From Eledone cirrhosa (taxonomy: Eukaryota): 64,000 nt of DNA. Shown here piece by piece: positions 24,237 through 63,655 of the stretch. The notes under the pieces were generated by a model. The model searched no databases. It saw nothing but the letters and a program-made list of their open reading frames with translations, and was not told where the DNA came from. A program made the translations under genes and the position numbers. Each line of letters starts with the position of its first letter. Positions within the stretch are counted from its first letter, which is position 1. The stretch is from the NCBI GenBank assembly GCA_964016885.1, contig OZ024756.1:28210001-28274000 (forward strand), written 5' to 3'.

Positions 24237-24283
24237 ATTATCTGCTGCATTTCTACTGATCAGCTTCGCTGTAATTTGTCAAA
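24237..24283 (+). CDS. Heme peroxidase-like gene, first visible exon (IICCISTDQLRCNLSK; alternative frame LSAAFLLISFAVICQ)
   Basis: Pyrimidine tract plus CCAG acceptor, GTAAGT donor; the phase 0 to 2 reading joins the next exon in frame. Confidence 0.65.
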
Positions 24284-24364
24284 GTAAGTTATGTTCCATT
24301 CATTAAAATTTCGCTAATTTTTAAAACTTATATGTTTATTATATTTTTACTCTTTTACTTGCTC

Positions 24365-24572
24365 CAGCCATCCGGCTGAGGCCATGCTAGGGTACCGCCC
24401 TTGTTGCTACACGTTCTATCTCCAACCTATGTTGGTTGGCCATTGGTGTAAGAGGGAGTTCGTTGCCGTTGCCCTTAGTTTACCTTCGTACCGTACTGTG
24501 AGCTCATCCGGGATCCTGGAAAGCAGAGTGTCAAGATGTTTCTTGAAAACATCCACGCCCACACCATGCATT
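24365..24572 (-). mobile_element. L2/Crack/Daphne-like LINE 3' fragment
   Basis: Minus strand VDVFKKHLDTLLSRIPDE...ATNSLLHQ resembles the FKxxLDxxLxxIPDxP C-terminus. Confidence 0.6.
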
Positions 24573-24913
24573 TTTGGGGTGGTTTTCTGCTAGCATGTGT
24601 CGTATGCATATTCATATTATATGCAATATAAACGTTATGATATAACGATGCAAATATATGAACGTTTATATAAGCGTTATAATATAGCGTCCGTTATATC
24701 ATAACCGGAAGTGTTGACATTTGAAAATTTTAAAAGAAGTGAATCTTAAAATAGGCATATCATTATATATAAGAATATTTATGTTTAATCATCAGCTACG
24801 TAATTTAGTAGATAAATTATGTAATATCCATTCATTATTTATTCAAAGTAATCCGACTTATTTTACTAACGGGTTAAAAACATATATTCAGGACACACTC
24901 CCGCATTCCTCCT

Positions 24914-25092
24914 ATTGGCAGTATCGGTAGAGGGTCGGACGACATGCTTTCCAGCATAGTTACGTCCCTTTACGATCTGAGTTCAAATCCCGCCAAGGTT
25001 GACTTTGCCTTTCATCCTTACGGGGTCGATAAAATAAAGTACCAGTAATGCACTGGTTAATTGCTGGCCTTGTACCTAAAGTAGAAACAATT
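24914..25092 (+). mobile_element. Dominant tRNA-derived SINE with Meta-like central domain (about 20 copies, e.g. 9185-9367, 11850-12068, 26725-27261, 27337-27719, 39510-39990, 49107-49295, 49840-50085, 57502-57691, 59644-59750, 63695-64000)
   Basis: TGGCAGTATCGGTAG A-box-like, GAGTTCAAATCCCGCC B box, GCCTTTCATCCTTACGGGGTCGATAAAATAAAGTACCAG and shared tail. Confidence 0.9.
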
Positions 25093-25239
25093 ATATTATG
25101 ATATGAAAAATATAAATACCAAACAAAATTAAGTAATGAGAAAATAGGGAAGGAGTACAGAAGAGCAGATCTGGCTGTATGGGAAATTAAAGGAAAGGAC
25201 TATAAAAGCACTCTAAATCTATAAATGGGAAAAGAAAGG

Positions 25240-25750
25240 ACTCGCAGGCCACAGACGAAAGGGAGAGCGAAGGGGAGATGGCGATGGGCTCTAAGCCTAG
25301 GGCGGGGCGGTATTTTGGATGCGCCCCACGAACAAACTGGCAAAGGCATTTCCGCGATGGAATTCCCATTCGAAGGAGGTAGATCCCTCTTCTGGGGCGC
25401 CACATATTGTGACACGTTCTCCGCCTCCAGCTTTGTCGCTTCGGCCACAAATCCCGGAACTGCGGCCCGCAATGCGGAGGGCAGGAAGATAAGCCAATAC
25501 CGGTGATCATGACGCCAGAGCGCAGGTCGGTTCCCTCGACATACCGCTCTCAACAACATAATGAGAAGGAGCCACGACACAGACGGCTTCCCGTCACAAC
25601 TGGAACCAGCAGGTCTCGACGGTCAAGACGGCAAGCGCCTTAATGAAGTTCCCCTCTTCCCTTTCGAAGGAGGTAAATCTTTCATGTTGAATGCGACATG
25701 CTGTGACACGTTCTCCGCCTCCAATATAGTCGCCTCGGCTACAAATCCCA
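25240..25750 (+). mobile_element. Two tandem fragments of a CRE-like restriction-like-endonuclease non-LTR element; its C-terminus occurs separately at ~29480-29562
   Basis: LEPAGLDGQDGKRLNEVPLFPFEGGKSFMLNATCCDTFSAS and FPFEGGRSLFWGATYCDTFSAS (cf. DGKRPDG...PWxxGxxLxWDxTxxDT); LQRVSLVIVRGNA at ~29503 (cf. QRLSIAIQRGNA). Confidence 0.65.
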
Positions 25751-26064
25751 CATCTTTCCAATACTGCTTTCTTTTTCCGTATGTTTGACCAATTTATAAT
25801 TAAGATTAAAAAAAGTATAACCTGTTCAAAACGTTTAATGTCATGAAATCATACTTTTTAAGAATTTGTTGATTTTGAGAAATGCTCTTAAAAAAATATT
25901 AATGAATGTATTTCATTTTTCATTCGTTCCTTGCGGCGGGTTTTACAGATTACTTCGTAAGCGGGTAAGTCGATTTATGCTGATATATTCGTATGTATGT
26001 ATGTATGTATGTATGTATGTATGTATGTATGTATGTATGTATGTATGCATGCATACCTGCAACC

Positions 26065-60550: not shown

Positions 60551-60854
60551 TTTGCTCTATGGTTCTTATATATTTGATATATATTTATCCTTATCGAGCC
60601 CTCTTTGGATTTTAGTCTTCACATTTATTATTATTACTATATATATATATAACAGAGTGTTGTAGTTTGCTTGAAGCATTGTTGAATAGGGAATATAAAT
60701 TTAAATAATTTTAAAATCCGTACAATGCAATAGAAAATTATAGGTGCCAAGATAACAATAGAATTTTACTTTACCAAATTTGGTTATCCCAAATATTTAA
60801 AAACCCATTATCAAGGGAGTATACCTGTGAAAGTCTTATACATATATATTCCAG

Positions 60855-61015
60855 AAACGTATATGACATCGATTATTTAAGCGGTCTTTTCACTGAAACT
60901 AAAGCTCCTCCTGCGGCTGTTGGTCCGACATTGAAGAAATTGTTCAAAGACCAATTCAATAGTTTGAAAGATGGTGATAGATTCTTTTATGCGAACACCG
61001 ATGTATTTCAGAGTT
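60855..61015 (+). CDS. Heme peroxidase-like gene exon (NVYDIDYLSGLFTE...VGPTLKKLFKDQFNSLKDGDRFFYAN...)
   Basis: TTCCAG acceptor, GTAAGT donor; DIDLxxG...E...VGPT...QFxxLxxGDRFxY motif; phase 2 to 1. Confidence 0.96.
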
Positions 61016-62263
61016 GTAAGTAAAAAAAAGATTTTTCTTTTTTCATTGTTCTCTTTCGTTGATCTAGTAAATTAAGAAATTCCTGACATTGAGCCAACAT
61101 AAACATGATCATGTACGTATATATATATATATATATATATATATATAGTGTATGTGTGTGTGTGTGTGGTGTATACGTGTGTACATGTGTGCGTGAATAC
61201 ATATGTATATGTACATATATATATATATACGAGTATATGTACATATATATATATATATGTACATATATATATATATATATACATACACACACACAGGGAA
61301 ATTCCGTTATAACGAAATTTACAGGGTATAAAAAAATTCGTTGTAACGAAAAATTGTTTATAACGAGATCGATCTAACACATCGAGTGTGTGGCCGGGGA
61401 TTGAAAAAAATTTCGTTATACTGAAAAATTCGTTATAATGGTATTTGTTATAACGCAATTTTACCTGTGTATATATATATATATATATATATATATATAT
61501 ATATGTGTGTAGTGAAAGAGTGAAGAATAACAGTACAAGAAGGGTTTTATTTACAGTATTAACAATTGTTTCAGTGATTAAGTTGTCTTAAAATTGCTAA
61601 TCACTTGAAGTTGTGTCACTCAATTTTAAATACGATGTATGCTTAACCAAATCATCAGATAACTGAATAACATAGATATAGCGTTTATAAATTCAAATTA
61701 CAACATCATTAATAAAGAAAGAAGAAAAAAGAAAAAGATAGAGAGAAAAAAAAAGAGAAATAAAGAAAAAAGATAAAGAAAAAGAAAAATAGAGAGAAAA
61801 AATAAAAGTAGTGATAATAAATGAATAATAATAAATAAGTTATAGCGAAGATGATAAAAAATAAATAAATTTTTTTTTTATATGTGTGCGAAGAAAATGA
61901 ACATAATATGATTGTTGAAAATAGTTGTGGTGCTGGTGGTTAAAATATAAAGATATGAGGGTATAAAGATGAAAGTATTAAATATATTCATATATGTATT
62001 ATTTAAATTAATAAATTAATAAATTGGAAGTTATATTAAACTATCCACAATACGGAGTATTCACAACCTCTAACTGGATTACCTATAACGATAACTTGTT
62101 ATCCCTTATATATATATATATATATATATATATATATATATATATATATATATATATATATATATATATATATATGCAAAAGTTTTATTTAAAATTGTTG
62201 GGTTACAACGAGTAAATATTTTATAACTAATATAAAGCACTCAACAAGTTTTAGAGTAGATAT

Positions 62264-62627
62264 ACGATATTAAACAAATGGAAACTATATTTATAAAACC
62301 ATATTTATTTCATTATACATATTTCAGGGATACCATATTAAAAATATGGCATGCCTTCTTCAGATAAAATACAATATATAAGCAGTTTTATAAATAAATT
62401 TGACGTACCATAAAATATTGATCAACTTCCATTTAAAGAACCAAACCAACTTCTTTAAATGGAAGTTGATCAATATTTTATGGTACGTCAAATTTATTTA
62501 TAAAACTGCTTATATATTGTATTTTATCTGAAGAAGGCATGCCATATTTTTAATATGGTATCCCTGAAATATGTATGATGAAATAAATATGGTTTTATAA
62601 ATATAGTTTCCATTTGTTTAATATCGT
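62264..62627. mobile_element. Penelope pLTR fold-back (~180-bp arms) with hammerhead motif on each strand
   Basis: Arms are reverse complements around CCAAACCAAC; hammerheads at 62306-62371 (-) and 62520-62585 (+), same family as 45524-45589. Confidence 0.85.
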
Positions 62628-63137
62628 ATATATATATATATATATATATATATATATATATATATATATATATATATATATATATATATATATATATATA
62701 TATATATATATGTATGTGGTTGACAGCTGAGAGAAAAGAGTACTCAATACCGAAACACAGTTTTAATATTCATTTTATTAAGGCTAAATAGTGAGACTTG
62801 TTAACCTGATTATATGTCTGACGTGGTCCGCCTCATAGTTCACACTGGATACCCCTCAATATCTCTAGCTTCTGCAGTAGTTGCTCTAAAGACGACACAT
62901 ACAGAAAAGTCTTGAAAGTGGTGGTGGTGGTGGTGGTGGTGGTGGTGGTGGCCTTCTTGTTACTGTTGCCAGCTGTTGTGGTTGTGTTTGAGATTGTGGT
63001 GGCGGTGGCAAAGCTTTGCCCTTACACTTGGAAGGGACGGAGAAATCATAACTCAACTACTACGAAAACCTGTGACAATTTTGCATATAAAAACTTTCGG
63101 TCTGCTTGGATTTATAGTTCAGTTTTCTACCATTTCT

Positions 63138-63525
63138 GTCTTCTTCTTCTTCTTCTTCTTCTTCTTCTTCTTCTTCTTGCTCTTGTTCGACAAGGCCGGG
63201 GTCATCCTCAGCCAGCGATCCCAAAGCATCGTCGTGCGTAGAGCCGACCAGATCCATCAGCGCCCTCCATCGCTGGCGGTCCCGTGCCAACACCTCTGCA
63301 TCCTACAAGGTGATGTCGAGCCTCCTGAGATCTTCCCTGATGATATCCAGCCATTTGAAACGGGCCCTCTTCCAGCCTGCAGCCACTGCGTCGAACGAGA
63401 GTAAGGCCCTAATAGGATGATCTGGTGGAAAGCAGAAGACATCTCCTTACCAGCGTACGCGGCGGGTAGCTGTGGGCTGATGAGTTCGCGCACGCAACAC
63501 TTTGTTGGAAACGTGGTGGTCCCAT
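63138..63525 (-). mobile_element. RTE-like LINE 3' fragment with (GAA)n tail
   Basis: Minus strand GRGPxxxWxDxIR-like and LARDRQRWRAL motifs followed by (GAA)n. Confidence 0.65.
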
Positions 63526-63555
63526 CTGTTTATTCATTTTTTTTTTTTTTTTCAG

Positions 63556-63655
63556 ACCAACTTGAAGAAATCAAAAAGATACAAATGGCTAACCTCTTGT
63601 GTAGAAATGTACCAGGCTTAACTAGTGTAAAAGAGAATGCTTTTGAGATGACCTC
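63556..63655 (+). CDS. Heme peroxidase-like gene exon (YQLEEIKKIQMANLLCRNVPGLTSVKENAFEMTS); gene continues beyond the window
   Basis: Poly-T plus CAG acceptor, GTGAGT donor; QLxEIRKxSLAxxxCxN motif; phase 1 to 2. Confidence 0.94.

Follow-up and report, generated by a model that had tools for sequence, protein, structure and literature searches.

A 64,000-nucleotide (nt) stretch of the Eledone cirrhosa genome (contig OZ024756.1, positions 28,210,001 to 28,274,000; hereafter the window) carries a multi-exon peroxidase homologue whose product is very probably expressed, secreted and not a peroxidase. We put at roughly 0.55 the probability that it is a secreted, Ca2+-stabilized, heme-free glycoprotein that works by binding rather than by catalysis in the skin mucus or surface layer of octopods. 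This reading draws on an open reading frame, the loss of the catalytic set, the retention of a Ca2+ site and of the cysteines, a tandem gene family in octopods, and a contig in public sequence data that is bounded by the splice sites of one exon.

A sequence-only reading of this DNA had proposed 11 forward-strand exons that splice in phase. All 11 were present with the lengths and AG/GT edges it gave (sum, 1,526 nt; 508 codons; no stop), and the structural and degenerate motifs it quoted lay where it had placed them. None of 10,000 shuffles of the 11-exon coding sequence was free of stops, although this is a weak control since the exons were picked by hand; an artefact of such picking was rejected as the explanation of the open frame. 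When eight exons were scanned singly, six matched the Pfam An_peroxidase profile in collinear order, and two of them exceeded the curated cut-off of 25 bits (52.4 and 47.8 bits; E values of 4e-14 and 1e-12), in line with the proposed homology. However, the frame assigned to the first of the 11 exons (24237-24283) was most likely wrong. Its best 11-residue hydropathy was 2.9 in the revised frame versus 0.85 in the original one, and the revised translation aligns to the N terminus of Octopus sinensis XP_036366590. This exon most likely encodes the hydrophobic core of a predicted signal peptide (LSAAFLLISFAVICQ).

The revised model comprises 13 exons and 515 open codons. It adds two putative exons, one with the ATG (18092-18096) and the other a micro-exon of 16 nt (25949-25964), which rest mainly on homology and splice signals rather than on reads. 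The former consists of the ATG and 2 nt followed by a GT donor, with the 5' untranslated region upstream; its donor ranked 6th among 803 GT sites within 9000-24236, and a Met-Arg start also occurs in three full-length relatives. The micro-exon would end the signal peptide and restore the phase, as suggested by homology to XP_036366590; its donor was the best of 244 in the intron, and its acceptor was weak (rank 43 of 180). The spliced protein matched XP_036366590 with an E value of 2e-166, and the 13-exon protein was 48% identical to it over residues 1 to 515. The mature part of the predicted protein is acidic (isoelectric point, 4.9) and contains six N-glycosylation sequons.

Loss of the catalytic set was scored at nine heme and catalytic positions in myeloperoxidase numbering (Gln91, Asp94, His95, Arg239, Glu242, Arg333, His336, Asn421 and Arg424), with the defining motifs taken from PMC4420034 and PMC5437232 (here and below, publications are cited for the portions available). 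The window protein retains one of the nine, Glu242. The An_peroxidase domain begins with the GTCNN motif in exon 27795-27940, and the distal helix follows in exon 30360-30539, where the canonical G-Q-x-x-D-H-D reads GKLIIKD. Here, Gln91 is replaced by Lys (30494-30496), the ester-forming Asp94 by Ile (30503-30505) and His95 by Lys (30506-30508), while the final Asp96, a Ca2+ ligand, stays (30509-30511). In the distal R-x-x-E motif, encoded by exon 50131-50569, Arg239 is Asn (50139-50141) and Glu242 is kept (50148-50150). The proximal helix in the same exon has no His. Its column is occupied by Glu315 (50421-50423) in an ungapped alignment to invertebrate peroxidases, and by Met314 (50418-50420) in the register of myeloperoxidase and the profile, in which Lys311 then falls on Arg333; depending on the register, Arg333 is thus Leu or Lys. 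Exon 51792-51986 encodes Leu in place of Asn421 (51847-51849) and Asp in place of Arg424 (51856-51858). No alignment that we made placed a His at the distal or proximal heme position of the window protein. The earlier claim that every heme and catalytic motif had been lost therefore holds for eight of the nine residues and fails for Glu242 and for the Ca2+ site, which is complete; the proposed His-to-Glu replacement is correct in one register and becomes His to Met in the other.

All four side chains of the distal Ca2+ site (Asp96, Thr168, Asp172 and Ser174; ligand set from PMC4420034 and PMC5437232) are kept in the window protein, the loop TGVIDAS being intact in exon 46701-46796 (46727-46747), and they are likewise complete in all six relatives that cover these positions. 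A conserved Cys-Cys pair is encoded by a 19-nt micro-exon (39237-39255) and a cysteine-rich loop by exon 41662-41762. The 42-nt exon 47924-47965 keeps the frame, and most relatives have five more residues in this stretch; a search for an extra micro-exon in the interval from 47965 to 50131 gave no convincing candidate. VGPT and GDRFFY lie in exon 60855-61015 (An_peroxidase E value, 1e-12), and the Pfam domain ends in exon 63556-63655. A donor follows the latter, and as no exon with a stop codon lies inside the window, the chain continues past its end and the C terminus falls outside. Ordinary peroxidases share 80 conserved columns, 50 of which are unchanged in the window protein. The 30 peroxidases used for this comparison were chosen by their catalytic motifs from 76 full-length matches, so that conservation of these motifs is by construction and that of the Ca2+ and structural columns is not. 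The only such hydrophobic segment, at residue 261, corresponds in the alignment to one of the core helices of myeloperoxidase. The window protein does not qualify as a peroxinectin: where that family has its integrin-binding KGD motif it has DGD, with KGD or RGD at this place in 3 of 10 relatives.

It is very improbable that the protein is still an active peroxidase whose catalytic residues have been rearranged. All relatives are named peroxidases in the databases, and one paralogue retains four of the nine sites; the window protein, however, has neither histidine, its distal Arg and Gln are gone along with Asn421, and far smaller losses inactivate PXDNL (PMC8533639). Indeed, two substitutions at the Gln91 and Asp94 positions are by themselves reported to abolish peroxidasin activity (PMC8533639). 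The residue losses support the non-enzymatic role that had been proposed.

The octopod relatives of the gene were identified with its largest exon. An exhaustive protein search with 50133-50567 placed eight octopod-type proteins at the top (37 to 47% identity), seven of which belong to Octopus vulgaris, O. sinensis, O. bimaculoides and Argonauta hians, whereas a word-based search with the same exon against longer proteins found no match among 216 candidates. A profile search added six further family members. The members are XP_036366590, XP_036366593, XP_036366834 and XP_029647656 in O. sinensis, CAI9737353-57 in O. vulgaris, XP_014782529, XP_014782530 and XP_014776816 in O. bimaculoides, and GAB1602081 and GAB1602083 in A. 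hians, and their records carry automatic names (peroxidase mlt-7-like or chorion peroxidase-like). In each of these four species one contig carries the family records, with consecutive accessions such as CAI9737353-57 in O. vulgaris. This indicates a tandem cluster in each species, as judged from accessions and contigs rather than from gene maps. Two of the public models in the cluster are faulty (CAI9737357 and CAI9737353): one fuses two paralogues and the other skips exons. The skipping falls at the intron boundaries of the window gene, which supports shared intron positions.

In two quick maximum-likelihood trees, searched without bootstrap, the window protein and its octopod relatives formed one clade with a Shimodaira-Hasegawa-like approximate likelihood ratio (SH-aLRT) support of 100. 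Members of the clade are 35 to 48% identical to the window protein and share its predicted signal-peptide start; no one-to-one orthologue of more than 50% identity was found. Nine of the 10 relatives tabulated retain none or one of the sites that they cover, four of them being fragments that cover four or five sites. Clade-invariant residues include Asp in place of Arg424, Cys368 and Cys374 (each in 11 of 11 sequences, the two cysteines being encoded by exon 51792-51986 of the window gene), His233 (10 of 10), which is invariant only within the clade, and Cys100 (7 of 7). The window protein shares this signature and belongs to the monophyletic octopod group. The nearest relatives are thus octopod, in keeping with the cephalopod origin that had been suspected, and the candidate pseudo-peroxidase stands, no lone oddity but part of a tandem family that spans several species. 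The proximal His is present in one nested clade member even though the outgroups lack it.

A sister group was formed by two Logan transcripts (P0022 and P0179) together with P0015 from ENA. These proteins keep the distal His and Arg and have Asp for the proximal His, an intermediate state in which P0022 and P0179 retain two to three of the nine sites. A second gene annotated as chorion peroxidase-like lies on the same contigs as the family (O. sinensis XP_029647729 and O. vulgaris CAI9737911). It also lacks both histidines (His95 to Arg and His336 to Thr), with three of nine sites retained in XP_029647729, yet it scores 545 bits on An_peroxidase. Among 76 other full-length matches, both histidines were present in 56, one or both were missing from 8, and the remaining 12 were unreadable; the degenerate query biased this sample. 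Judged by such residues, apparently dead peroxidase domains recur among invertebrates.

The same comparisons bear on a possible carrier function, in which the rebuilt pocket would bind a small molecule such as heme or a pigment and Met314 or Glu315 would take over as iron ligand. In the myeloperoxidase register Met314 falls on the proximal His and Lys311 on Arg333, Glu242 is retained, the fold appears intact in the model of a relative, and His233 is invariant in this clade alone. However, position 314 is Met, Leu, Val, Gly or Ile and position 315 is Glu, Ala, His, Tyr or Asp across 11 sequences, one paralogue having His in the same column as Glu315, and a conserved Met or Glu replacement ligand was rejected because both positions vary across the family. 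Arg424 contacts a heme propionate, and its change to Asp in 11 of 11 sequences is a charge reversal. We regard such a carrier as unlikely.

Transcription of the gene was addressed with four public runs (X1 to X4) compared over 49800-51290, which covers the single exon 50131-50569. In run X4, a 2,036-nt contig equaled this exon with no differences and gave way to other sequence precisely at each splice site. The contigs of X1 to X3 continued through both sites. Differences among the runs over the interval lay in repeat elements only, with none listed in the exon. The 753-nt upstream flank of the X4 contig fits the 652 coding nt expected plus a leader of about 100 nt, and its 844-nt downstream flank fits the 456 nt of exons still inside the window and a further 390 nt or so, where the closest relative requires 351. 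Its depth figure was 1,002, compared with about 5 in the adjoining intronic bin, depth being a poor measure of expression. The simplest reading is that this contig is a spliced mRNA, the alternative being a processed copy.

A young pseudogene that has not yet accumulated stops is scarcely credible. The gene's terminal branch is long (0.8 to 0.9 changes per site) and no close orthologue was found, as a dying gene might show. Yet its thirteen exons are in phase, the X4 contig is bounded by splice sites, and the same losses are seen in intact genes of four other species. Moreover, of 79 columns without variation among its relatives the window protein keeps 73, compared with the majority residue at 173 of 401 other columns; on so long a branch this implies constraint along the gene's own lineage, with which a very recent death is still compatible. 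As degenerate heme sites occur family-wide in four octopod species, what the residues describe is an old, constrained pseudoenzyme family and not a young pseudogene.

Persistence of the fold was assessed on XP_036366590, standing in for the window protein. Its AlphaFold model (mean predicted local distance difference test score, 90; predicted template modeling score, 0.89) matched lactoperoxidase with a Foldseek E value of 1e-29, myeloperoxidase with a VIA Z score of 37.4 (root mean square deviation of 2.7 over 497 residues) and DUOX1 with a VIA Z score of 36.6. With the Pfam cut-off passed and a myeloperoxidase-like fold predicted for the relative, the gene belongs to the peroxidase-cyclooxygenase superfamily (PF03098), and the proposal of a conserved fold with a rebuilt heme pocket is supported by a model that reaches a Z score of 37 to myeloperoxidase and lactoperoxidase. 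Full-length relatives are 615 to 638 residues long and score 197 to 294 bits on An_peroxidase, the sole domain above cut-off. Their C terminus consists of a module of about 55 residues, with invariant Trp and Arg and five Cys, followed by three helices. The earlier statement that no other domain is visible is correct inside the window and reflects the window edge, as the relatives carry this weakly TSP1-like module and the helical tail. Weak Foldseek rows for the module were rich in TSR proteins, while a wide VIA search with the C-terminal model gave no Z score of 5 or more. In the Atlas, the clusters nearest to the relative were molluscan peroxidases, one with TSP_1 in 13% of its members.

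Inactive peroxidase domains are already known from DUOX and PXDNL, and the octopod protein is not a new kind of system. In human DUOX1, the peroxidase-homology domain lacks density for heme, and assembly requires its corresponding cation site (PMC7794343). Like that domain (PDB 7D3E and 7D3F), the octopus protein has a peroxidase fold without heme ligands and keeps the distal cation site. Unlike DUOX, a membrane NADPH oxidase in which the domain serves assembly, it is free-standing, predicted to be secreted, and of a separate lineage. As the relatives are 615 to 638 residues long and have An_peroxidase only, the transmembrane, EF-hand and NADPH-oxidase parts of a DUOX are missing; a DUOX fragment was rejected on this ground and because the X4 contig leaves only about 390 nt past the window exons. 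Peroxidasins have N-terminal LRR and Ig domains and a C-terminal VWC domain. A fragment of peroxidasin or PXDNL was rejected, since the signal peptide leads directly into the peroxidase domain and the relatives have no LRR, Ig or VWC Pfam matches. PXDNL is an inactive, secreted-type peroxidase homologue of unknown function (PMC8533639), a likeness that the octopus protein shares by prediction. However, PXDNL has several domains and is a sister of peroxidasin, to which it is 58% identical, with a few substitutions, whereas the octopus protein has lost eight of nine sites in an expanded family. In its mode of action it would come closest to the DUOX homology domain and to PXDNL, from which it differs in being free-standing and multiplied in tandem.

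The best non-octopus match was found among molluscan peroxidases with a TSP1-like module (Ylistrum XP_060067599 and Mercenaria XP_045159592, as well as O. sinensis XP_029647729), whose C-terminal module resembles that of the octopod relatives. The two bivalve proteins differ from the window protein in retaining seven of nine sites, including both histidines, and in having a long N-terminal pro-region. Myeloperoxidase, lactoperoxidase, the Euprymna halide peroxidases and the melanogenic peroxidase of Sepia ink share the superfamily and fold; these are described as active enzymes, and the window protein lacks their catalytic residues. Tandem peroxidase clusters are also known in Euprymna (PMC6386654), the available portion of that paper containing no comment on catalysis that we could find.

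The assignment to skin mucus comes from the arm skin-mucus proteome of O. vulgaris (PMC10138644), whose table contains the family members A0A7E6FGH2 (six spectra and two peptides, in all three of the raw files seen) and A0A7E6FFP6 (one spectrum); no discussion of either was found in the portion of the paper available. The same non-catalytic scaffold may instead belong to another secretion, such as oviducal cement or egg coat, saliva, sucker cuticle or stylet matrix, which we think rather improbable. Paralogues are 37 to 59% identical and could be tissue-specific, and An_peroxidase domains recur in mollusc shell matrices (Nautilus shell paper). In addition, an O. maya transcript called chorion peroxidase, by a weak database match (E value, 3e-9), peaks in the oviducal gland at fertilization (PMC8976471), but its quantitative PCR primers had no convincing match to any family member. 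Likewise, the available portion of an Argonauta eggcase preprint cites peroxidases merely as background, and none of the family identifiers tried was among the rows listed from an ink proteome supplement (PMC10142993). Skin mucus was the only tissue for which we found evidence at the level of accessions.

The mucus table also contains an abundant ink-type peroxidase-like group (A0A7E6FIS1; Table S1, row 2459, of PMC10138644) with the peptide NIQQGR instead of the usual NIQRGR, a departure at Arg424. The presence of this group fits a regulatory pseudoenzyme or decoy at the body surface, which would pair there with an active peroxidase or sequester peroxidase inhibitors made by microbes. Fast divergence and lineage-specific duplication would suit an arms race, and bacterial inhibitors of myeloperoxidase (SPIN) exist, according to PDB titles. 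However, the pocket has been remodeled with clade-invariant new residues rather than preserved as a mimic, and such a regulator or decoy is decidedly unlikely.

For a Ca2+-stabilized binding protein of skin mucus, the following mechanism can be envisaged. The predicted signal peptide would direct secretion, and the six sequons may be glycosylated. Ca2+ and disulfides could hold the fold without heme, by analogy with the DUOX peroxidase-homology domain, and compound I could not form without the catalytic set. Rebuilding of the emptied pocket would have involved the Asp that invariably replaces Arg424 in the clade, a Leu of the proximal helix and new cysteines. The protein and its TSP1-like tail may bind further components of the mucus or matrix, or the surfaces of microbes, and duplication with fast divergence might have yielded paralogues with different partners.

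Several observations weigh against this interpretation. Run X4 is not recorded as RNA, one exon was compared, and contig depth measures expression poorly. The mucus proteins A0A7E6FGH2 and A0A7E6FFP6 are paralogues about 38 to 40% identical to the window protein, while its closest relatives (A0A7E6FGV1 and A0A7E6FGA3) were not found among the mucus-table rows listed, and scraped mucus also contains cytoskeletal and other cellular proteins (PMC10138644). Inside the clade, XP_029647656 retains four of the nine sites (His95, Arg239, Glu242 and His336). The predicted survival of the fold without heme residues is read from a model of a relative and not of the window protein, and the TSP1-like call is weak (profile E value of 0.011 to thrombospondin-1; Foldseek E values of 0.37 and worse) and concerns a region outside the window.

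The introns of the gene are packed with microsatellites and transposon debris, and AT microsatellite dominated the list of the repeat finder. A broken non-long-terminal-repeat retrotransposon fragment with reverse-transcriptase sequence, classified by eye, occupies 70-2000 on the forward strand. Its G+C content is 54%, versus about 33% in the window as a whole, and 685-1875, its longest stretch free of stops, has 396 codons. Intronic pieces with reverse-transcriptase and GIY-YIG-like sequence at 34843-35334 (reverse strand), 35644-36680 and 43173-44009 (forward strand) are presumably related to Penelope-type elements, which they resemble; 35644-36453 and 36279-36680 form an inverted pair around a short hairpin. 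Also by eye, intronic tail fragments of long interspersed elements and a short PIF1-helicase-like (Helitron-like) remnant were recognized at 38419-38925 and 47293-47655 (both reverse strand), 63180-63530 and 58030-58330. A very high-copy repeat resembling short interspersed elements (SINEs) at 49850-50090, which has many other copies and matched tens of thousands of contigs, lies about 40 bp upstream of the acceptor of exon 50131. Long, uniform minisatellites lie at 20443-22996 (29 bp, 88 copies, 95% match), 10234-11278 (55 bp, 19 copies) and 19584-20339 (38 bp, 20 copies), and by eye the 29-bp unit seems to originate in the terminal part of the common SINE-like repeat. Several local inverted duplications, found by reading, involve intronic DNA that looks unique and pair 42290-43200 with 44960-45700, 15880-16400 with 16400-16880, and 13780-14000 with 14330-14560; these are foldback elements or assembly artefacts.

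In the literature searched, which was mostly open-access, we found no description of the free-standing octopod family as noncatalytic and no mention of the six family accessions tried, although Fig. S6 of PMC6386654 may include these genes. A more specific and doubtful possibility is that they constitute a fast-evolving family of secreted surface receptors, in which the emptied pocket, closed by new disulfides and the invariant Asp/His set, binds a specific ligand. If so, the ligand would be either a pigment or a product of microbes (a surface molecule or a peroxidase inhibitor), and the family would be an undescribed arm of cephalopod skin defense built from a dead enzyme. The role of a free-standing pseudo-peroxidase is a question shared with PXDNL and in part with DUOX. 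With seven, four, three, two, one and none of the nine sites kept, the clade forms a graded series that offers a model for the folding of peroxidases without heme. Peroxidase-like entries in octopus skin, mucus and gland data sets are taken as cross-linking, melanin-forming or antimicrobial enzymes. As at least one whole tandem cluster would be incapable of such chemistry by the known mechanism, these annotations and the physiology derived from them need checking.

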